Positions 6,464-54,516 of a stretch of 64,000 nt of DNA are shown here, piece by piece. A model generated the notes under the pieces. The model did no database searches. It was not told where the DNA came from and was given only the letters and a program-made list of their open reading frames with translations. Both the position numbers and the translations under genes were made by a program. Each line of letters starts with the position of its first letter. The first letter of the stretch is position 1. Source of the DNA: Candidatus Brocadiia bacterium (lineage in GTDB: Bacteria; Planctomycetota; MHYJ01; JACQXL01). The stretch spans positions 3,308 through 67,307 of the forward strand of contig JBBAAP010000011.1 of NCBI GenBank assembly GCA_041658285.1, given 5' to 3'.

Positions 6464-7002
6464 GCGGGTAAGATATTATAGACCGAGTATAAAGTCAATA
6501 AATTCTATTACCTCTTGTACCTGCGACAGATATTAGGGACGGGGGAAATTGGCAGTTCTTAGGATAAAAACTAATAGATTCGTTCCTCACTACAAGTTTA
6601 AACGCACTTTTAGCCCGGACACCAGTGGGGGTATATACACCTCACCGTATACCCTCATCCCAAAGAGCGTATCCGCCCGTTTCCGTAAGCGTATCTGCCA
6701 ATTCCGTTAAGCCGTGCTTGTCTTGAGTATTTCCGAAGGGCTTAACTGGATCTAAGTGCCAGTACGTTTTATATTTCTACCGGCACCAAGAAAGAACGGC
6801 CAGTTTTGCTCTGCTAATGTATGAATGTATGGTTGAAAGGATACATAGAATAGACATGAGTCCTTCGGGAATTATTTCCAAAATATTGTGGATATTCCTC
6901 GTTATTTATTGACGAAAATATTATAAAGACTAATATCATCAAAAGAACCGTGATATTGTCCGGAAACGAACAAGCCGTTCCTGGGAACGTAAAATAGGTT
7001 GT

Positions 7003-9261: not shown

Positions 9262-10443
9262 ATGTCTGTATTATTCGAGCCTGTCCGTATAAGCAATATC
9301 GAGGTCAAGAACCGGATAGTCCGTTCGGCCACGGCCGAGCGGATGGTGGATAAGGACGGCATCGCCACCGAACAGCTCGTAAAGCTCTACAAGATGTTGG
9401 CCGGCGGTGAAATCGGAACCATTATCACCGGTCATACTTCGGTTGATATCCGCGGCCGGGCCGGCTGGCAGATGACCTCGTTGGAAAGCGATGCGGCCAT
9501 CGGCCCGTTGAAACTTTTGACCGGTGCGGTGCATAAATACGAGTCCAGGATACTGGCCCAGATAAGTCACTGCGGCCGGTACGCGCCCGGAGCCATTATC
9601 GAACAGCGGCCTCTGGCCGTCTGTCTCGACCCCAACGAAGAACAGCGCGGGCAATACCCGCCTCAGGAAGCCGGTCCGGCTGATATCACGTATTTGATAA
9701 ATGCATTTGCCAACGCTGCGGTCCGGGCCCAGGAGGCCGGCTTCGACGGTATTCAGCTGCACTCAGCGCACGGATACCTGTGTTCCCAGTTTCTGTCGCC
9801 GCTGTTCAACCGGCGCACAGATGAATGGGGCGGTTCGGTTGAAAACAGGGCCAGGTTTTTGGTGGAGGTGGTAAAACTTATCAGGCATCGCACCGGGTCT
9901 GGTTTCGCCATCTGGGCCAAAATGAATTGTGAAGATTTCGTACTTCGGCAGTTGGAGCAAAGCGACTTACTGCCGAGTATGGTCGGCTGTAACTCATTAC
10001 ATTCTAACAGCCGATCCATCGAGGGCGGTATGACCGTGGAGGAAAGCATTGCCACGGCCAAGTTACTGAAAGCGGCCGGACTGGATGCTCTGGAGATAAG
10101 TGGGGGAGTCACATTTGATACGGTTATTCGCAAAGGAGTTCCGGACAAGGCGCCCGAGGCGTATTTCCTGGCCCAGGCCGAGCGGTTCCGGAAAGAGTTG
10201 CCTGGCTTCCCGCTGGCCCTGGTGGGCGGAATGCGTTCCTGCGCGGTGATGGAAAAAGTCGTTTCCGGCAAGGGCATCAACCTGGTCTCGATGAGCCGTC
10301 CGTTCATCATCAACCCGCAGTTCGCGCTGGAACTTAAGAAGGCGAAATCAACATCGACCTGCATTTCCTGCAACCTGTGCCTGGGCAAGAAGGGCGAGCC
10401 GGTCAAATGCCGGGCCTTGCCGAAAATACTTCCAATCGCTTAA
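9262..10443 (+). CDS. NADH:flavin oxidoreductase, Old Yellow Enzyme family, carrying a 27-aa in-frame insertion
   Basis: TIM-barrel OYE hallmarks (HSAHGYLCSQFLSP, RRTDEWGGSVENRARF). The expected ...EDF-VEGGMTVEES... junction is interrupted by LRQLEQSDLLPSMVGCNSLHSNSRSI. C-terminal CxxCxxC cluster. Confidence 0.8.
   Translation: MSVLFEPVRISNIEVKNRIVRSATAERMVDKDGIATEQLVKLYKMLAGGEIGTIITGHTSVDIRGRAGWQMTSLESDAAIGPLKLLTGAVHKYESRILAQISHCGRYAPGAIIEQRPLAVCLDPNEEQRGQYPPQEAGPADITYLINAFANAAVRAQEAGFDGIQLHSAHGYLCSQFLSPLFNRRTDEWGGSVENRARFLVEVVKLIRHRTGSGFAIWAKMNCEDFVLRQLEQSDLLPSMVGCNSLHSNSRSIEGGMTVEESIATAKLLKAAGLDALEISGGVTFDTVIRKGVPDKAPEAYFLAQAERFRKELPGFPLALVGGMRSCAVMEKVVSGKGINLVSMSRPFIINPQFALELKKAKSTSTCISCNLCLGKKGEPVKCRALPKILPIA
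9939..10019. mobile_element. 81-bp two-hairpin palindromic element (MITE/RPE-like) inserted in-frame within the OYE gene
   Basis: gtacttcggcagttggagcaaagcgacttactgccgagtatggtcggctgtaactcattacattctaacagccgatccatc. Hairpin 1 is TACTTCGGCAGT/ACTGCCGAGTA; hairpin 2 is TCGGCTGT-aactcattacattctaac-ACAGCCGA. About 45 bp are near-identical to 12120-12165 and 26 bp to 18342-18368. Length is a multiple of 3 with no in-frame stop. Confidence 0.7.
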
Positions 10444-12064: not shown

Positions 12065-12168
12065 CGGTTCGAGTATAACGAGTTATACTCCAGCAGTTTG
12101 AACGTTAGTGAATTACTGCTGAGTATCCTCGGCTGATAACTCATTACATTCTAACAGCCGATGGACCG
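12065..12168. repeat. intergenic copy of the two-hairpin palindromic element family
   Basis: gagtataacgagttatactc palindrome, then tactccagcagt...actgctgagta, then tcggctgataactcattacattctaacagccgat. Near-identical to the in-frame copy at 9939-10019. Confidence 0.7.
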
Positions 12169-15496: not shown

Positions 15497-16117
15497 ATGT
15501 CAAAACGAATATTTATATATCCGGTTTTATTATTATGTATCATTTCAATTTGTTGTAGTTCATCTGGGGCAAAACCGGCAACAAATATAGGGGCATTAGC
15601 ACAAGAACCGTTATCGTTAGAGTGTTTTGATGAGGCCATTGAAGGCTCCCCTTTAAAAAATGGGATGGTAAGGGTGAAATGTACTTGGTATGATTTGTTC
15701 TATCAAACCGAAATACAACCGGCGAGTATTAAGGTGAAAAATACGGGTAGATTATATTTTATTTCAAGTGGTGGAGCTCCTGCCGTTGCTTTGCATGAAG
15801 ATTCAAGTAGAAATTTTGCCCTTATATATGATGTTAAATCAATAGCTGAAAATTTGATTACGTTAAATTTAAAAGGAACACTATCTTATGTTAAAGAGAA
15901 TTTTTTTGTAGAATCTTTATGGGAAGGCACTGTGAAAAATGGCGAGGAGCAAGCTTTCAGTAAAGTATTCACAGACCCTATCAGTAAAGAAAATCGGTTG
16001 CTGTTAATTATAATTAAAGCTAATAATAAAAATGACAGCACAGATCCAGTTGACGAATACCGCAAAATGCATCCCTTTCTGAAAGAGCCTGACAAATCCA
16101 AAGAGCAACCTAAATAG
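15497..16117 (+). CDS. hypothetical lipoprotein
   Basis: 206 aa. Signal peptide with lipobox region (LLLCIISICCSSSG). AT-rich. Confidence 0.45.
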   Translation: MSKRIFIYPVLLLCIISICCSSSGAKPATNIGALAQEPLSLECFDEAIEGSPLKNGMVRVKCTWYDLFYQTEIQPASIKVKNTGRLYFISSGGAPAVALHEDSSRNFALIYDVKSIAENLITLNLKGTLSYVKENFFVESLWEGTVKNGEEQAFSKVFTDPISKENRLLLIIIKANNKNDSTDPVDEYRKMHPFLKEPDKSKEQPK

Positions 16118-16222
16118 GGGGTAAGGGACATCATTATGTACTATAAATGAATTAATTGGCGCCAGAGGTGTTTCGCAGTGCAGCCTGCCTTGCCGTCAGG
16201 CAGGGGTAATCAACGATTCATA

Positions 16223-16430
16223 GCATGCTGGGGAAGATTTGCAGCATGCTGGGGAAGATTTGCAGCATGCAGGGGAAGATTTTCAGCACGCTGAGGAAGT
16301 TTTCAAGCATGCTGGGAAAGTTTTCAAGCACGCTGGGGAAGATTTACAGCATGATGGGGAATATTTACAGCATGCTCGGAATGGTTTATAGCACGCTCGG
16401 AATGGTTTATAGCACGCTCGGGAACGATTC
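16223..16430. repeat. direct tandem array, about 10 copies of a 21-bp unit (GCATGCTGGGGAAGATTTGCA and variants)
   Basis: Visible by eye. The 78-aa ORF in the track (MLGKICSMLGKICSM...) is simply the translation of this repeat. Confidence 0.85.
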
Positions 16431-16560
16431 ACTCCAGGGTGTGAACGACTTGTTCGAATAACTTAGCGGGTTTGCCGTATGACTGAGGCGGCCTGAAAAG
16501 TGATTACTACGGGCGTAAAACGGACAAAAACTGTCACTTTGAGGGGCTAAAACGAATTAA

Positions 16561-16650
16561 ACGCGGAATCAGGAGGGTAGGGATAGGGTATGGGGAGGGG
16601 GTAGATACCCTACTCAGACGTAGGGGGTACGGTTATCGTATACCCCCATT
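16561..16650. repeat. G-run/C-run palindromes (gggtatggggagggggtagataccctac; gggggtacggttatcgtataccccc)
   Basis: Same architectural element as at 1537-1577, 2421-2455 and 53812-53852. Directly precedes a tandem array. Confidence 0.65.
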
Positions 16651-16885
16651 TGGTAAATATAGGTATACGGCTTGGTAAATCAAGGCTCACGGCTTGGCAA
16701 ATAGAGGTATACGGCTTAGTAAATCCAGGCGCACGGCTTGGTAAATAGAGGTATACGGCTTAGTAAATCCAGGTGCACGGCTTGGTAAATAGAGCTATAC
16801 GGTTTAGTAAATCCAGGTGCACGGCTTGGCAAATAGAGCTATACGGTTTAGTAAATCCAGGCGCACGACTTGGCAAATACTGGAG
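16651..16885. repeat. direct tandem array, about 10 copies of a 22-bp unit (alternating GGCTTGGTAAATAGAGGTATAC / GGCTTAGTAAATCCAGGTGCAC)
   Basis: 44-bp super-period, visible by eye. Confidence 0.85.
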
Positions 16886-17021
16886 ATGTATCTAAAAAAC
16901 CAAAAGAGGCGTTATTTTCCTTGTGTTTTAATGAAGATTTGCTTAAGATATTCACGAACCGGCAATATTATTATTCCAAAATCTGCCGGGCGCTAAGAGC
17001 GGCAGAGTAAGGAGTTGTTCT

Positions 17022-18278
17022 ATGTCGCAGAATTGGTGGAAATATGCAGGATTATTCCTGCTTTTAGGGGCGGTGGTAATACTGAGCCAGGGCGGATGCG
17101 GCAGTAGCGGCGGTGATGATAATGAGGATGGTGATAGTGGACCTTTATTTCCTGGATATTCCGGTAATCTGACCACAACCGGCGGCGTGATATATGACGG
17201 CGGAAATATGGATTGGGGTTCTGACATTGCCGTGGACAGCACCATAACCGCCAGTCCGGTGGTTTACGTGTTGGGCGCGGCTTTTGCTTCGCCGACCGGC
17301 AACGGAGACGCGGTTATTTCTAAATTCAACAGCAGCGGCGATATCACCGCAGCTGCCAGGTTTAACGGTACGGGCGGCACGGCGCTTGCCGTAAACCAGA
17401 ACGGCGTTTATATGACCGGTCAGCGTCCAAGCCCGAGCGCTTATGTCACCGCTAAGTATGACCTGAACCTTAACCTGATAACCTCGACCGCTTTGGCCGG
17501 CGATGCCAGCGCCCGGGCTATGGCTCTGGATAATTCCGGCAATGTTTATGTCATCGGTTCGGACGGGACGATCAACGCTTATAATTATAAAATAGTCAAA
17601 TACGATGCCGATTTGGTCCAACAGGGTAGTCCGGTTATTTATGATAGCGGCTATAACGATGAGGGAAGCGGCATCGCGGTTGATAATTCCGGTAATATCT
17701 TTGTGACCGGTATGAAGATATCCGGCACCGGTTACAGCATCGTAACGTTGAAGTATAATTCTTCTCTGGTTCTTCAGAATACGGTCGAGTACAGCACCAA
17801 TGTTTATTATAGCACCAGTTATGGTTTATATCCAAGAATTGCGGTGGACAAGAACTCGGGCAGCGTCTATGTATCCGGGACTATATTAGGTACGGCCGGG
17901 CCGGGAGACCCGTTCAGGGACATTTTATTGATTAAGTATGACGCCAGCCTTAATCAGGTTGCCACCGCTATTTATGCGGATGGGCTTGAAGGCACGAATC
18001 TGGCGGTTGATGCCAGCGGTAATGTATATGTCAACGGCAACTATTATAACGGTGTTGTGCAGGATGCCTGGCTGGTGGTGAAGTATAATTCTTCCCTGGT
18101 TTACCAGTCTTATTTCACGGATAAATCAGCAACCAATTCGATGGACGAGCCGGGCGGGATAGCGCTGGACAGCGCCGGTAACGTGTATCTGAGCGGCATA
18201 ACTGCGCCGACTTATGTCTCGGGGGATTGGTCTAATTTTAATATCCGGGCTAAACGGTTTCCGCCGATGGGGCCGTAA
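17022..18278 (+). CDS. secreted beta-propeller repeat (SBBP-type) protein
   Basis: 418 aa with signal peptide. Repeated DNSGNVYVIG / DNSGNIFVTG / DASGNVYVNG / DSAGNVYLSG motifs. Confidence 0.7.
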   Translation: MSQNWWKYAGLFLLLGAVVILSQGGCGSSGGDDNEDGDSGPLFPGYSGNLTTTGGVIYDGGNMDWGSDIAVDSTITASPVVYVLGAAFASPTGNGDAVISKFNSSGDITAAARFNGTGGTALAVNQNGVYMTGQRPSPSAYVTAKYDLNLNLITSTALAGDASARAMALDNSGNVYVIGSDGTINAYNYKIVKYDADLVQQGSPVIYDSGYNDEGSGIAVDNSGNIFVTGMKISGTGYSIVTLKYNSSLVLQNTVEYSTNVYYSTSYGLYPRIAVDKNSGSVYVSGTILGTAGPGDPFRDILLIKYDASLNQVATAIYADGLEGTNLAVDASGNVYVNGNYYNGVVQDAWLVVKYNSSLVYQSYFTDKSATNSMDEPGGIALDSAGNVYLSGITAPTYVSGDWSNFNIRAKRFPPMGP

Positions 18279-36199: not shown

Positions 36200-36460
36200 T
36201 CAAACTGCTCCAATGTCTCATAGGACTGCTCCAATCCTATGTCAAATTATTATAATTGCTCATAGGACTGCTCTAATCCTATGACAAATCACTCCAACAT
36301 CTCACAGGATTGTTCAAATCCCTCAAGGGATTACTATAATCCCTCGCAGGATTACCACAATCCCTTGAAGGACTACTATAATCCTTTATCGGATTGCTAT
36401 AATCCCTCATAGGATTGCTAAAATCCTTCAAAGAATCACCATAATTATGTGAATATTATA
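36200..36460. repeat. degenerate direct tandem array (about 22-bp unit, ATAATCCCTCATAGGATTGCT-like, about 11 copies)
   Basis: Visible by eye. Units contain the internal palindrome TCCTATG/CATAGGA. Confidence 0.75.
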
Positions 36461-37844: not shown

Positions 37845-37890
37845 AGTCGGGATAACGTGCCAGTAATTCATTTCGTTCAAACTGGCACTA
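37845..37890. repeat. GGGATAACGTGCCAGTA-N20-ACTGGCACTAACC hairpin element
   Basis: Near-identical to 2055-2098. Loop sequence matches the hairpin at 60056-60085. Confidence 0.65.
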
Positions 37891-37982
37891 ACCGTCGCTG
37901 GCGGAGAATATGAGCCATATTAGTTGCCTTCCAAGCTTATAATAGGGTAGTATACTTTCAGGTTTGGTCAATATAATATAAT

Positions 37983-38362: not shown

Positions 38363-40147
38363 ATGAGAAATTATGCATTGCTTGTACTGGTATTGGCATG
38401 TTTTATTTTTGTGCTGCCTTGGGAACAGAATAGCGAAGCCTGGTGTCCAAACCCGCCCAAGACTATGGGCAGTGAAGCCGCGCCGCCGTCTGTTAACCCA
38501 ACGCCTGTCCTGGTTTCTCGTCCGGCTCTGAGCATAGGTTTGATGCCGCGCATCCAGGCGATGAGAACGCCGGTTGGGCCGACTTTGGACGGTGTGGCTG
38601 AGACTTGGGAGGTTTGGTGGACTCTCAACCGCGATAAATTCTTCAGCTTCAAGCAGCCGATCGAATGGGTCAGCATCAAGAAGACCGACGGCGGTACCAC
38701 CTCAATAACCAAACATCCGATATACGAAGAACTTCTTAAACTCTTAAGGACCGCTTTAACCGAGAAGGATCAGACCGTTGCCTGGAACGCGGCGCTGGCT
38801 TTGGGCCGGAGCGGCGAACCAACGGTTTTGCCGGATTTACAGAAAGCGTTCAAGGAGAATAAGCAGATCCTGGTCAAGGACTACTCCATCCTGGGGCAGG
38901 GCTGGCTTAGAAGCAACGAAGCCCTGGAAATGTTGAAATCAGTCGCGCTCGATAATAAGGAACAGGAAGTCCTGCGCAGTCATGCGGTAGCGGCTTTGGG
39001 ATACCTGTCCGACCCGGCCGTATTCGGGATACTGAAAAGCATTATTGAAGACAAGGAAAACAAGAAATTCACGGACCTGCGAGCCGCTGCGGCGATAGCC
39101 ATGGGTTTTACCAAGGATAAGGACGCGGTAACCACGCTGGCTGGTTTGCTCAATAGCGCCGAGAAGGTGAATCCTAAAATCCGCAGTTATGCGGCTATGG
39201 GCCTGGGCCGAATCGGCAATGAAGGTGCTTTCAATGAACTTAAGAAGGTTATGGCCGATCGTGACAACAGTGTCAGGGTATCCGCAGCCATCGCTTTGGG
39301 TATGATGAGTGTCGGCCCGGTTGGTTCAGCCAATGAGCCGAAAAAGATTCAGGATGAGCTGATCAGCCTTCTGAAAGACAAGCAGGGTATTATCCGCGGT
39401 CTGGCGGCCATATCACTGGCTCAGATCACGGTTAAAAATAAGGAAGTAATGGATACAAAAACCATCGTTCCGGCTCTATCCAAGGCTTTGAAGGATACCA
39501 AAACCGCCGATGGCGACGGCTTGATTGTCCTGGCCATGGGCATCCTCGGTGACGAATCATACAAGGCCGAATTCAAGAGCATAATGGAGGACCGTAAGAA
39601 GCGCCAGCTTCTCAAGGCGGCCGTAGTTATGGCTACTGGCTTGATGAAAGATAAAAGCCAGGCGCCGACCTTTATCGCTATGCTTAAGAAACAGTCCGAT
39701 GACCCAATTATGTCTCCGTATCTGATAATGTCGTTAGGCATGATCGGCGACGAAAAAGCACTCGAAGCCATCGAACCGATTTGGGCCAAGGTCGATAAAA
39801 ATGTCACTTCATTAGCCTATACCAATATGGCTGTGGCCATGTCCATGCTGGGCAAGAGAAGCGAAATCGTTGCTCAATTAATCCAACATACCAAGAGCAA
39901 TAATGATGCGCTTAAGCAGTATGCTTGCCACACGCTGGGTATGCTGGGCGACCGGGATTCGGCCAAGACTTTCGTGGAAAATTACAACAGCGAGAAGAGC
40001 GATACCAATAAAGCGTTTATCATCACCGGTATCGGATTTCTGATGGAAAAGGCGTCTTCACCTATAGTAGCTGAGTGGACAGGTAATAATAACACCGAGA
40101 TCTCGACGTTGATTATCGACCATTTATTGCCATTGCCCACCTGGTAA
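38363..40147 (+). CDS. secreted HEAT/PBS-lyase-type repeat protein (paralog A)
   Basis: 594 aa with signal peptide. Many AALALGRSG / AAMGLGRIG HEAT-like repeats. Shares WEVWWTLNRDKF and C-terminal IDHLLPLPTW with the next gene. Confidence 0.65.
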   Translation: MRNYALLVLVLACFIFVLPWEQNSEAWCPNPPKTMGSEAAPPSVNPTPVLVSRPALSIGLMPRIQAMRTPVGPTLDGVAETWEVWWTLNRDKFFSFKQPIEWVSIKKTDGGTTSITKHPIYEELLKLLRTALTEKDQTVAWNAALALGRSGEPTVLPDLQKAFKENKQILVKDYSILGQGWLRSNEALEMLKSVALDNKEQEVLRSHAVAALGYLSDPAVFGILKSIIEDKENKKFTDLRAAAAIAMGFTKDKDAVTTLAGLLNSAEKVNPKIRSYAAMGLGRIGNEGAFNELKKVMADRDNSVRVSAAIALGMMSVGPVGSANEPKKIQDELISLLKDKQGIIRGLAAISLAQITVKNKEVMDTKTIVPALSKALKDTKTADGDGLIVLAMGILGDESYKAEFKSIMEDRKKRQLLKAAVVMATGLMKDKSQAPTFIAMLKKQSDDPIMSPYLIMSLGMIGDEKALEAIEPIWAKVDKNVTSLAYTNMAVAMSMLGKRSEIVAQLIQHTKSNNDALKQYACHTLGMLGDRDSAKTFVENYNSEKSDTNKAFIITGIGFLMEKASSPIVAEWTGNNNTEISTLIIDHLLPLPTW

Positions 40148-40158
40148 AGGAGGGTCTA

Positions 40159-42042
40159 ATGAAGCGATTTCAAATCCTGGTTAGTGTTGGTGCAATTGTC
40201 CTGGCCATTCTATTCCTGACCGACAGCTTTATCTTCGGCTCCTGCCCGGGTTCGATGTTTTTCCGGCGCTCGCAAGCCAATCCTGAACCGGCCCAACCTA
40301 ATAACGATACTACTGAGACTAAGAAGGAAGAGCCTAAAAAGACGCCCGAGGTGGCCGCCGAGCCCAAGAAGGAAGAGCCTAAACAAGAATCCTCGACTGA
40401 AGCCACGCCGACTGCCATCAGCGCCGTCCGGCCGCCTTTAGGCAGCGGATTACAGCCGCGCATCACCAGCCTGCGCACCTTAGCCAACTCCGATGGCCAG
40501 ATTATGACTCTGGCCGGCATGGTCGAACCCTGGGAGGTATGGTGGACGCTTAACCGCGACAAATTCCTCAACTTCAGACAGCCGATTACGTGGGTTACTG
40601 TCAAGGAGTCGGAGGGCAGCAGGTCAGTCATCATACTGCCCATATACAAGGAACTTTTAGAAATATTAAAATCAGCCCTTAACGAAAGGGATTATACCCT
40701 GGTTTGGAATGCCGCCCTGGCTTTGGGCCGTTGCGGCGACCCCGAGGCGATACCTTTACTTCAGAAGGCGTTTAACGATACCGAGCACCCGCTGGTCAAG
40801 AATTATACACTGGTTAGCCTGGGTTGGATAAGAGACCCGTCTGCGGTGGATTTCCTTGCCGGCAAGCTTACTGACAAGAAAACACAGGAAATCGTCCGGA
40901 GCCACGCCGCGGTCGGCCTGGCCTATATCAACGAGCCGGGTTCGCTCAAGGCTCTGAATGAAACCATCAACGAAAAGGAATACCGCAAACAGGCAGACGT
41001 TGTTTGCGCCGCCGCCTACGCGTTGGGATTGCTTAAGGATAATTCTGCCGTCAAGACTCTGGCTGCTTACCTGAGCGGCGAGCTGAAATCAGATACCCGC
41101 ATCCGTTCCTACGCGGCTTTGGCCCTGGGACACATCGGCTCCAAGGATGCCTTCCAGGAGCTGAAGAAGTCCGCCGGCGATAAGGACAGGGGAGTGCGCA
41201 CATCAGTGGCCATTGCCCTGGGTTTGATGGAAGAACCCAAGGCCAAGGATGAGCTGCTTAATATGCTTCAGGACAAGGACGAGGTCATCCGGGGCATGGC
41301 GGCCCTGGCCCTGGCCGAGTCAACCCTGAAATATCCCGATAAGGCGCACAGCCAGAAGATGGTGTCAGACAACATTCTTAAATGCTTTGGTAATTGCAAG
41401 CGCGATGGACAGGGCTTGACCATAATTGCCCTGGGCATCCTGGGTGAATCTAAGATAAAACCGGAATTGCGCAAAATGCTCGAGGAAAAGCGGAAACCGC
41501 GCGCCGTCAAGGGCGCGGCCATAATGGCTTATGGTCTGCTGAAAGACAAGGAAGCCGTGCCGTTGCTGATGGATCTGCTTAAGACCACACCCGACGACCC
41601 GATACTGGCGCCTTATGCCATACTGGCCCTGGGCATGATCGGCGACGAAAAGGCCGTGGCATCAATCCAACCGCTCTGGGACCGGGTCGACAAAAACGTC
41701 AGCGCTGTGGCCTATTCCAATATGGCCGTATCGCTGTCCATGCTCGGCAAACGCAAGGAAGTGCTGGATCAACTGGTCAAGCATTCGGTCAAAGGGCAGA
41801 GCGACACCTTGAGACAATATTCATTGCATACGCTCGGCCTGCTGGCTGACAAGGAAGCGGCCCAGGCCTTTGTGGAGGCCTATAAAGAAGGCGATACCAA
41901 CGCCAAGGCCAACGCCGTGGTTGGCATCGGACTGCTTATGGAAAAGAACTCCATACCGCTGGTGACCCAATGGCTGGCCGACAATAATACCGACATATTT
42001 ACCTGGATAATCGACCATCTTCTGCCGATTCCGACGTGGTGA
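40159..42042 (+). CDS. secreted HEAT/PBS-lyase-type repeat protein (paralog B) with a Glu/Lys/Pro-rich linker
   Basis: 627 aa. Collinear with paralog A (WEVWWTLNRDKF ... IDHLLPIPTW). Extra KKEEPKK repeat region. Confidence 0.65.
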   Translation: MKRFQILVSVGAIVLAILFLTDSFIFGSCPGSMFFRRSQANPEPAQPNNDTTETKKEEPKKTPEVAAEPKKEEPKQESSTEATPTAISAVRPPLGSGLQPRITSLRTLANSDGQIMTLAGMVEPWEVWWTLNRDKFLNFRQPITWVTVKESEGSRSVIILPIYKELLEILKSALNERDYTLVWNAALALGRCGDPEAIPLLQKAFNDTEHPLVKNYTLVSLGWIRDPSAVDFLAGKLTDKKTQEIVRSHAAVGLAYINEPGSLKALNETINEKEYRKQADVVCAAAYALGLLKDNSAVKTLAAYLSGELKSDTRIRSYAALALGHIGSKDAFQELKKSAGDKDRGVRTSVAIALGLMEEPKAKDELLNMLQDKDEVIRGMAALALAESTLKYPDKAHSQKMVSDNILKCFGNCKRDGQGLTIIALGILGESKIKPELRKMLEEKRKPRAVKGAAIMAYGLLKDKEAVPLLMDLLKTTPDDPILAPYAILALGMIGDEKAVASIQPLWDRVDKNVSAVAYSNMAVSLSMLGKRKEVLDQLVKHSVKGQSDTLRQYSLHTLGLLADKEAAQAFVEAYKEGDTNAKANAVVGIGLLMEKNSIPLVTQWLADNNTDIFTWIIDHLLPIPTW

Positions 42043-53444: not shown

Positions 53445-53570
53445 TTTATTTCGACGGTCAAGCGAGACACCTGCCTGCGGCGCACAGGCAGAGACCAGAG
53501 CCTACCGGCTCGCATGTTATTCCACCATCAACACTTCGAGAAATATTAATATTCCCCCATTCCCATACCT

Positions 53571-53710: not shown

Positions 53711-53811
53711 AACGCTAGGGACACATCCCATCCCCGGTAACGCACTAACCAGGCCCCTTCCAGGCCGTACTTTTCTCGGTTTCCGCTCAAATCCTTATTT
53801 AATTCGAGATA

Positions 53812-53852
53812 GAGGGGGGGGGAGATACCTACCCCCCTCCCCCCTAACCTCT
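53812..53852. repeat. G-run/C-run palindrome (GGGGGGGGGAGATACCTACCCCCCTCCCCCC)
   Basis: Homologous in type and position to 2421-2455. Confidence 0.7.
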
Positions 53853-53859
53853 ACTTCCT

Positions 53860-54478
53860 ATATCTATAACCCCTATATAGAGTATGGATAACTCCCATAG
53901 GTGGTGTCAGTAATTCCCATAGGCGGTATAGATAACCTCTATGAGGTGTGTGAATTACTGCTATAGTGAGTACTAATAATTCCCATAGGCGATATCAATA
54001 ACCCCTGTAAGGGGTGTGGATGACTACTATGGGACATCTGGGTAATACCTATAAGCAGTATCGATAATCCCTATAGGATATGTTGTAAACTGGTATTAGG
54101 TGTATCGAAAACTGGGACTAGGCATATCGAAAACGGGGATAGATGATATCGGAAACGGGGATAGGGTGTATCGGAAACCGGGACTAGGCATATCGAAAAC
54201 GGGGATAGATGATATCGGAAACGGGGATAGGTGATATCTAAAACGGGGATAGGGTGTATCGAAAACGGGTAATAGGTGTATCGAAAACGGGGATAGGGTG
54301 TATCGAAAACCGGTAGTGGGTGTGTCGAAAATGGGGATTGGGCGTATCGAAAACCGGGGCTAGGTGTATCGAAAACGGGGATAGGTGATATCTAAAATGG
54401 GGATAGGTGATATCGAAAACGGGGATTGAGCGTATCGAAAACCGGTAGCGGGTGTATCGAAAACCCATACTACCATCA
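53860..54478. repeat. direct tandem array, about 28 copies of a 22-bp unit (TATCGATAAC...TATAGG grading into TATCGAAAACGGGGATAGGGTG)
   Basis: Strict 22-bp phase throughout. The first ~12 units are about 90% identical to 2460-2725. The spurious minus-strand 76-aa ORF at 54238-54468 lies within this array. Confidence 0.9.
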
Positions 54479-54516
54479 AAAAAATAAGTGATAATAAGAT
54501 GGTAGTGGATGGGGTT

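Follow-up and report, generated by a model that had tools for sequence, protein, structure and literature searches.

The DNA considered here, called the window, is a stretch of 64,000 nucleotides (nt) from a Candidatus Brocadiia bacterium (contig JBBAAP010000011.1, positions 3,308 to 67,307 of the forward strand). Its third array locus, locus 3, lies in an intergenic gap of 904 bp (16118–17021) with a lipoprotein-like open reading frame (ORF) upstream and the gene of an SBBP beta-propeller protein downstream. The preliminary description of this DNA had placed two tandem arrays with G/C palindromes between these genes, and Tandem Repeats Finder (TRF) bears this out with arrays of 21 bp x 10.2 and 22 bp x 10.4, copy numbers which rest on the short-read MEGAHIT k141 assembly of the source contig. 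The top TRF score in 200 shuffles of 16118–17021 was 46. The source DNA covered comprises approximately 72 kb of the source contig, which is 92.7 kb long, and fragments of two further contigs. The features of the locus are as follows.

15497–16117: upstream ORF, with a lipoprotein-like signal sequence read from its translation
16184–16208 (stem-loop 16184–16204), + strand: G/C hairpin CCTGCC-TTGCCGTCA-GGCAGG, then GGTA, found by regex scan
16215–16429, no strand assigned: left array, 21 bp x 10.2, consensus GATTTGCAGCATGCTGGGGAA (TRF: 82% matches, score 204)
16225–16461, + strand: 78-aa ORF, an artefact, the sole stop-free frame of six through the 21-bp (7-codon) repeat
16530–16574, + strand: conserved leader (about 45 nt), core CTAAAACGAATTAAACGC (CTAAAACGAATWWAACGC) at 16547–16564
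16575–16614, + strand: G-rich tract with a G-quadruplex-type motif GGGTAGGGATAGGGTATGGGG (16575–16595), then a small palindrome GGGTAGATACCC
16620–16647, + strand: GTAG-tagged G/C hairpin GTAG-GGGGGTACG-GTTAT-CGTA(TA)CCCCC, resembling a repetitive extragenic palindrome (REP) and abutting the first unit of the right array
16650–16885, no strand assigned: right array, 22 bp x about 10.4 (TRF)
16943–16971, + strand: candidate sigma-70-like promoter TTAAGA-17-TATTAT for the SBBP gene, a consensus match only
17022–18278: downstream ORF, SBBP beta-propeller protein (PF06739, Pfam scan)

The CCTGCC..GGCAGG hairpin is situated 67 nt past the stop codon of the upstream gene and abuts the left array. 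Another of this type, at 53470–53491, precedes the left array of locus 5, and a 13-mer of the locus 3 copy, TCAGGCAGGGGTA, is also found at 2149–2161. Every unit of the left array carries the 10-bp palindrome CAGCATGCTG, and the unit variants change gradually along the array, from left to right. Between this array and the leader stand about 100 bp of unique sequence. Three G-quadruplex-type motifs occur on the + strand in the 64 kb, two of them within array loci (2327 and 16575). The hairpin at 16620–16647 has a 9-bp stem, a 2-nt bulge and a 5-nt loop. The right array is given by TRF as 22 bp x 9.4 (71% matches, 16650–16856/16879) but is better described as 44 bp x 5.2 (16650–16879; 93% matches, score 362), that is, as a higher-order repeat of alternating units A (GGCTTGGTAAATAGAGGTATAC) and B (GGCTTAGTAAATCCAGGTGCAC), whose 6-bp palindromes, GTATAC and GTGCAC, are related by a symmetric change at two positions. 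Since the candidate SBBP promoter lies downstream of the right array, the latter would not be needed as a promoter for this gene; the count of sigma-70-like matches in this region is not clearly above the shuffle mean. The upstream ORF gave no match in Pfam or NCBIfam and, with its present start, is absent from the protein records.

Locus 3 has relatives throughout the window. Of the TRF rows with a score of at least 40, 22 of 26 have a period of 21–23 or a multiple thereof (42, 44, 66), the remaining four having periods of 12, 14 or 15. Hairpins composed of a G-run and a C-run number exactly five in the window (1537, 1559, 2427, 16623 and 53814), and each is found directly 5' of a 22-bp array on the + strand. 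The approximately 45 nt preceding these hairpins can be aligned in all four modules concerned (1, 2, 3 and 5), with the leader core exact at 1507 and 16547; nhmmer gives the leader of locus 3 E = 6e-7. Module 1 opens with two intact 23-bp hairpin units in tandem. The tetranucleotide tag of the hairpin is GTAG at 16620 and 2423, CATG or CTAG in module 1 and ATAG in module 5; on two contigs described below it is GTAG (L053) and TTAG (L043). Loci 3 and 5 possess a common order: the end of a gene, the CCTGCC..GGCAGG hairpin, the left array, the leader, the (N)TAG-tagged hairpin of G-run, ATAC and C-run, and the right 22-bp array. The grammar of array, palindrome and array proposed earlier is thus repeated elsewhere in the window and proves richer than first described, including as it does the leader and, in loci 3 and 5, the CCTGCC hairpin. 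Two further loci complete the set:

6590–6712, between gatC (− strand) and a response-regulator gene (+ strand): decayed sixth module
36208–36445: locus 4, 21/42-bp arrays of AATCC..GGATT hairpin units without a G-run hairpin

In the former, the leader-like stretch TTTAAACGCACTTTTAG is the top nhmmer match outside the training set (E = 0.32), and is accompanied by a hairpin, GGGGGTATA..TATACCC, and a 22-bp x 2.1 repeat whose unit resembles array 1. All six modules share one orientation (+ strand), and the GC skew is positive across the whole window, from which we infer that the + strand is the leading strand. All five intergenic gaps of more than 300 bp hold such repeats, and the other gaps are of 252 bp or less. 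In its gene content the window is ordinary core chromosome (holA, radC, gatC, an ars operon, a secretin cluster, fusA, rpsB-tsf-pyrH and others), and the window ORFs that were scanned included neither a transposase gene nor any rep, par or cas gene.

Modules 2 (about 2393–2950) and 5 (about 53783–54495) are paralogues with defined ends. Across their 12 proximal units, which diverge from one another, the two modules show 90% identity with no gaps, and their distal, internally homogenised parts show approximately 65% identity with indels. This pattern is that expected of duplication of a whole module followed by turnover of the array, and would best be read in that way. A 31-nt stretch, GAGTATGGATAACTCCCATAGGTGGTGTCAG, is identical at 2491–2521 and 53880–53910 in these two modules though the neighbouring units differ; on its − strand it reads as a promoter-like CTGACA-18-CATACT facing the hairpin.

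Comparison of array profiles placed the arrays of loci 2 and 5 in one family and both parts of locus 4 in another, leaving array 1 and both locus 3 arrays as singletons. The hairpins tell a different story. The locus 3 hairpin (H3) matches the reverse complement of the distal units of locus 2 (A2b, array 2670–2922) with z = 7.6, a value reached in none of 300 shuffles, the matching stretch being CGGTTATCGTATACCCC versus CGGTTATCG-ATACCCC; its match to the locus 5 units (array 53860–54464) has z = 4.8. The segment after the module 2 hairpin (H2) matches array 1 (z = 4.7), and H1, H2 and H3 match the reverse complement of the left array of locus 5 (A5L; z = 3.3–4.6), which is the only array inverted relative to its partner, hairpins and arrays otherwise running head-to-tail on one strand. 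The array unit shared by loci 2 and 5 has the form of a small hairpin too, TAGGGG-GTATCGATAA-CCCCTA. By these alignments the hairpins are homologous to the arrays of loci 2 and 5, and because of this homology the 22-bp period is probably a legacy of a hairpin unit of 22–23 bp. The preliminary description had spoken of unrelated unit sequences, which is upheld for the units of locus 3, as these match no other array of the window significantly, but is too strong for the family as a whole given the relationship of H3 to the units of loci 2 and 5. It had also suggested selection on structure or periodicity; descent from the hairpin is the simpler explanation, and the arrays are labile in a relative and missing beside other leaders, as described below. 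A core common to all arrays (RTAGRGG, AGRGGTRTA and similar) was sought and discarded, since it fits only array 1 and a few other units, and an enrichment of 6-bp restriction-type palindromes was unconvincing.

Outside the window, contig L002, from the MAG (metagenome-assembled genome) of a relative, codes for an SBBP protein which is 90% identical and has a different upstream neighbour. Its module is inverted and consists of a leader-like stretch, the palindrome GGGGGGTGGGGGATCCCCCCCC and approximately three decayed units, with no left array; the decayed units are homologous to the right array of locus 3 (AGAGGTAGTATCTGGTTGGTAAA versus TAGAGGTATACGGCTTGGTAAA). A scan of metagenomes with the leader core yielded mostly chance matches, from which L053, L042, L043/L016 and L024 were singled out. 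In L053 the leader is followed by GTAGGGGGGATATCCCC and no array, with the transposase (rve) of an insertion sequence (IS) adjoining, and in L042 there are two leaders and no arrays; the two contigs together hold three leader copies. The SBBP protein and the first ORF of the window are listed by NCBI as proteins of a Candidatus Brocadiia bacterium MAG, the first ORF with a locus tag of prefix WC980. L042 carries a protein with the locus tag WC980_10675, which has this prefix, and L053 comes from the same metagenome, shares repeats of 90–96% identity with L042 and carries a protein named Candidatus Brocadiia bacterium. We attribute L042 to the MAG of the window, and L053 probably belongs there too. 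L043/L016 and L024 derive from other metagenomes, and L043, which represents another organism, has no close orthologue in common with the window. On L043/L016 the leader core is duplicated and followed by TTAGGGGGGGGATACCACCC and then by a 22-bp x 14.6 array of the unrelated unit CTCCCGTAAAAACCGGAATGGG, an IS630-type remnant lying adjacent to the module of L043; on L024 the leader core precedes a short G-run. The distance from leader to hairpin ranges from 12 to 60 nt across copies. The comparison with L002 and the leader copies without arrays argue against strong selection on the arrays of locus 3. To judge from these copies, the leader and hairpin are the conserved part of the module and the arrays optional and labile, with any unit sequence admissible if the period is 22.

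Several further observations concern the leader and its surroundings. Two otherwise unrelated proteins encoded before leaders have nothing but their last 21 residues in common (window 16050–16117; L053 4408–4480, − strand), the shared C-terminal stretch being P-x-x-EYRK-x-HP-x-x-KEPDK-x-KEQ with 71% identity, and the conserved module may start inside the 3' end of the upstream ORF. HEAT-like AIRKLGKIG motifs were noted by eye in ORFs upstream of some other leaders (W124 and L042_6475), and L053_4408 has Pfam HEAT matches; within the window, 38363–42042 holds two tandem paralogous HEAT/PBS-lyase-repeat genes with 61% nucleotide identity over 1.6 kb. For the W124 protein a single relative is on record, on a contig of 1.2 kb, which indicates a poorly sampled lineage. 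Most of the short-read contigs retrieved for SBBP homologues end within 60–300 bp upstream of the gene. The leader core or its close variant CTAAGACGAATAAAACGC is tandemly repeated in metagenome contigs L018, L045 and L050 (69-bp x 4.8 arrays), and in L034 and L044 leader-core-like arrays of 18/36 bp reach about 16 copies. Such repeats may be distantly related to the motif or match it by chance. In scans of viral contigs the leader core gave only chance matches, the left-array unit none, and the right-array unit single chance matches in one phage family. IMG/VR contigs L096–L102, from unrelated viruses, hold isolated intergenic TAGGGGGG..GATAC..CCCCCCTA hairpins with no 22-bp array in the neighbourhood, and the shape of the hairpin alone is therefore not specific to this family. 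Plasmid and phage records showed no similarity to locus 3. A literature search revealed no paper with the leader sequence, and none on 22-bp arrays in Planctomycetes or anammox bacteria.

Two dispersed repeats of other kinds were noticed in the window. What looks like a second REP-like family is represented by the intergenic stretches 2036–2113 and 37848–37917 (77% identity over 70 bp), each with two CCCCGCTAAAGCGGGATAA stem-loops around an inverted repeat GTGCCAGTA..TACTGGCAC. The other is a direct repeat of 77 bp (83% identity; 9941–10015 and 12086–12162), which flanks the arsR and ArsP-permease genes.

One of the leaders on L042 is situated next to the remnant of a transposase gene. The ORF starting 39 nt past it represents the C-terminal third of a Y1 transposase; its residues 2–32 align with the final 31 positions of the NCBIfam entry NF047646, “REP-associated tyrosine transposase” (E = 6e-5). 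Full-length Y1 homologues are of approximately 222 aa (PF01797) and are flanked by GGGGACACCAYAC...GTRTGGTGTCCCC inverted repeats. In L042 the 3' terminal repeat is present, but the leader stands in place of the gene's 5' half. This Y1 family (L063, L064, L066 and L042 8109–8135) is recorded in many entries as proteins of 112–115 aa because the gene call starts at an internal Met; in L063 and L064 the upstream frame is intact and the gene full length (about 222 aa). Y1 transposases thus occur in the source MAG, and a leader lies at a breakpoint in one of them. This does not make the Y1 enzyme of L042 the mover of the modules.

The observations to be accounted for are the architecture of locus 3 and its recurrence, the homology between hairpins and arrays at loci 2 and 5, the dispersal of whole modules, the lability of the arrays between relatives and the lack of a coding signal. 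We suggest, with a probability of about 0.5, that locus 3 is a copy of a lineage-specific, non-coding modular family, in which selfish or near-neutral hairpin modules, similar to REPs and to bacterial interspersed mosaic elements (BIMEs), seed head-to-tail minisatellites. The module would consist of the conserved leader of about 45 nt followed by an (N)TAG-tagged, REP-like hairpin of the form G5-9 / ATAC / C5-7. From the 3' side of this hairpin head-to-tail arrays would grow, inheriting their 21–22-bp period from the hairpin unit of 22–23 bp, and would then expand, become homogenised (hence the 44- and 66-bp higher-order repeats) and decay through slippage or unequal recombination. Such arrays would behave as selfish or nearly neutral minisatellites, tolerated only at the boundaries of transcription units. 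The modules themselves may spread in the manner of the non-autonomous elements of REP or terminal inverted repeat (TIR) type which depend upon HUH (Y1) transposases, array growth presumably being a side effect of the hairpin, caused by stalled replication or by recurrent strand transfer of the Y1 type, rather than a selected function. They would also attract IS insertions and mark the breakpoints of rearrangements.

A number of points weigh against this proposal. The two locus 3 arrays do not resemble their own hairpins significantly (p = 0.2 and 0.07), and the locus 3 units have no significant match among all other arrays of the window, so that for these two arrays an origin from the hairpin would be an argument by analogy and not a result. 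The leader core, exact over 18–27 nt across organisms, and the 31-nt identity between modules 2 and 5 hint at a function beyond neutrality. Approximately 4% of the window is array DNA, in about ten arrays, although useless DNA is as a rule lost from bacterial genomes. Classical REPs occur as inverted doublets (REPINs or BIMEs), whereas the modules here are arranged head-to-tail. No gene for a Y1 transposase or RAYT (REP-associated tyrosine transposase) was found in the window. Lastly, the Y1 remnant of L042 has a different terminal repeat of its own, GTATGGTGTCCCC, which was searched for in the window and is absent, and no cognate transposase has therefore been identified.

Two alternatives concern the reality of the locus itself. 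It is scarcely credible that the left array encodes a real 78-aa repeat protein, (MLGKICS)n. A period of 21 is a multiple of three and a single frame is open across the array, but a coding tandem repeat had to be rejected: the diversity at codon positions 1, 2 and 3 is 0.17, 0.29 and 0.26, with no excess at the third position, and adjacent units differ by 23 non-synonymous as against 4 synonymous changes. A Pfam scan gave no match, and the exact sequence was not found in a collection of 15 billion proteins. The right array, with its period of 22, has stops in all frames, and the sister arrays, which have the same period and are closed in every frame, cannot be coding. The ORF had been taken from the outset for a translation of the repeat and the locus for non-coding DNA, a judgment which the single open frame and the lack of codon-position bias sustain. 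Very improbable, too, is the idea that the arrays are artefacts of short-read metagenome assembly. The MEGAHIT k141 origin of the source would lend itself to this explanation, as would the behaviour of a Logan assembly from another run, contigs of which start inside arrays (window 16832 and 54202), so that copy numbers derive from a single assembly only. Against it, the overlapping parts of these two independent assemblies are identical base for base, the units are divergent enough to be assembled (71–93% matches), the MAG of L002, a different one, holds homologous units, and a comparable array is present in a further metagenome (L043).

The remaining alternatives assign the arrays a function. 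They may be phased sites for DNA-binding proteins, comparable to iterons, centromeres or the sites of nucleoid proteins: a unit of 21–22 bp would equal two helical turns and keep its palindrome on one face of the DNA, so that a dimer could polymerise along the array, organising or insulating the chromosome or titrating a factor. The constancy of the 21–22-bp period in arrays of unrelated sequence is consistent with this, as are the palindromic cores of the units: that of the left array, GTATAC/GTGCAC in the right array, TATCGATA and CCCCTATAGGGG in loci 2 and 5, and AATCC..GGATT in locus 4. Plasmids offer analogues: the gamma origin of R6K has seven 22-bp iterons, sopC of F has 12 repeats of 43 bp, and in parC of R1 a core lies between two clusters of 11-bp repeats. 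DnaA-box-like 9-mers (TTATCCACA, at most one mismatch) number 29 in the window against 14.7 expected, 26 of them on the − strand, and eight lie at multiples of 22 bp within the arrays of loci 2 and 5 (2494–2854 and 53883–54023); the idea of DnaA boxes was dropped for locus 3, which has no such sites, and is relevant to loci 2 and 5 only. On the other side, the five or more unrelated unit families would require as many cognate proteins; no rep, par or obvious DNA-binding partner (ParB-, Rep- or Xre-type genes included) adjoins any array among the window ORFs scanned, with Pfam, and plasmids and phages show nothing similar. With the arrays neither kept in the close relative nor present beside leader copies of the same MAG, we consider binding arrays unlikely. 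The second possibility, somewhat more doubtful in our view, is that the leader is a promoter or processing signal and that the module is transcribed into an RNA comprising the G/C hairpin and 10–20 repeats of 22 nt, which might act as a sponge or yield unit-length small RNAs, in the manner of a leader-array locus devoid of spacers. The exact leader core across organisms in which the arrays differ would suit such a role, as would the single orientation of the six modules. The L043 units form 5-bp hairpins in which the variable pair is G-C twice, A-T five times, G-T six times and A-C once, the excess of G-T over A-C hinting at RNA on the leader strand. For the left array strong folding is predicted on either strand (z about −6), solely on account of the 10-bp palindrome in every unit; GGA or GGGAA between these palindromes recalls the loops of the sponge RNAs CsrB and RsmZ but is not specific. 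Module 2 has a match of 10/12 to the sigma-70 consensus with a perfect TATAAT (ATAACA-18-TATAAT) 12 nt before the hairpin. This is the only good promoter match, the other leaders lacking a good −10 region, and neither sigma-70 promoters nor intrinsic terminators exceed the shuffle expectation, there being no terminator after the arrays. The right array is no better structured than shuffles (z −1.2 and +0.4), which would rather suit a binding array. The common T-to-C variant of the left array creates an A-C mismatch on the + strand and a G-U pair on the − strand. No Rfam family was matched in the whole window at the gathering score or in the array loci at E <= 5, and the leader has no conserved secondary structure beyond the hairpin, the pairing of which has been kept through changes on both sides. 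The distance from leader to hairpin, moreover, is variable. We consider explanations at the DNA level more likely than one through RNA. The lability of the arrays and the leaders without arrays render both the binding-array and the RNA alternatives less likely, and both stay in contention because the leader core is conserved exactly between organisms. A related and still more doubtful interpretation would combine them: leader and hairpin would together serve as a start signal, with the arrays as what it produces or carries, either a spacer-less RNA locus of 22-nt units or replication-oriented, iteron-like sites which load a structural or segregation protein, the unit sequence being free and the period fixed. 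The Brocadiia are a group with unusual cell biology.

Should the modules be selfish DNA of the REP type, they would offer a clean example of a hairpin unit growing into a minisatellite, and their arrays would explain why metagenome assemblies of Brocadiia fragment at such sites. If, on the other hand, the leader is functional, it would define a new kind of leader-plus-array locus. The arrays would in addition make good markers for strain typing by variable number of tandem repeats (VNTR). Non-coding satellite families are rare in bacteria, more than 4 satellites per Mb having been recorded in only 18 of 119 reference species (PMC6749651). The Kuenenia genome is listed with 260 short tandem repeats, with no analysis of them (PMC5854607), and short tandem arrays may be general in the anammox class.

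Among known systems, the iterons and centromere arrays of plasmids resemble locus 3 in having direct repeats arranged head-to-tail at intervals of about two helical turns, a small dyad often within the unit and, in some cases, two arrays around a core. The direct repeats of 17–22 bp at a spacing of about 22 bp typical of iteron origins are found here as well; the adjacent rep gene, A+T-rich unwinding element, DnaA boxes and plasmid or phage context of such origins are not, and the neighbours that were scanned are housekeeping genes or without a family match. Nor does the parA/parB or parM/parR operon which adjoins centromere-like sites (parC, sopC, parS) occur among the window ORFs scanned. 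Locus 3 differs further from both in being chromosomal and multi-copy, with unit sequences unrelated between loci. CRISPR loci likewise show a conserved leader followed by a regular repeat array at which short-read assemblies break, but the units here abut without spacers and are degenerate, and no cas domains were detected among those ORFs.

Modular minisatellite elements offer another parallel. The pneumococcal BOX element has the structure boxA-(boxB)n-boxC, and the mycobacterial interspersed repetitive units (MIRUs) are also elements of this sort. They share with the present family the conserved end modules, variable internal tandem units and dispersed intergenic copies (here modules 2 and 5). 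The unit of 22 bp compares with 45–77 bp in those elements, the G/C hairpin and leader are peculiar to this family, and there is no sequence relationship. The TIR-associated Y1 transposases (TIRYTs) have a TIR consensus of GGGGWSAS (PMC3733652), and it is to this type that the Y1 homologues of the L042 remnant belong. The GGGGACACCAYAC...GTRTGGTGTCCCC repeats of these homologues appear to resemble the half of the hairpins made up of G-run and ATACC, most of all GGGGGGGGATACCACCCATAC in L043; the sequences are similar and not identical, and this TIR is itself absent from the window.

The closest likeness is to the GTAG superfamily of REPs and BIMEs. The hairpin at 16620–16647 has the properties by which REPs are recognised, that is, an extragenic imperfect palindrome of 20–40 bp with a stem of 5–13 bp and a loop of 2–20 nt, and an unpaired GTAG or close variant stands at the 5' foot of the stem. 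All hairpin copies here are intergenic and, like REPs, stand at operon boundaries. As with REPs, there are several sequence families per genome, tandem clusters are reiterated along with the DNA beside them, further copies of arrays are present elsewhere in the genome in one orientation and IS elements insert adjacent to them. In number, the copies come to 5–6 hairpin modules in 64 kb plus the three leader copies on two other contigs. Tandem REP arrays (GI-GIII) in Pseudomonas fluorescens SBW25 are duplicated elsewhere and oriented by replichore (PMC3116915), and in Thauera sp. MZ1T tandem GTAG-1 REPs with 5-bp stems flank genes for exopolysaccharide (EPS); REPs are also known as targets of IS insertion (PMC3733652). 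The present family departs from this picture in that no RAYT gene flanks it in the DNA examined, a conserved leader of about 45 nt precedes the hairpin, and the units are strictly head-to-tail at a period of 21–22 bp in 10–20 copies, most of which have lost the stem. Given this head-to-tail order, the fixed period with decay of the stem, the leader and the fact that no cognate transposase was found, we would not file these modules as REPs themselves but regard them as a variant of the REP kind.

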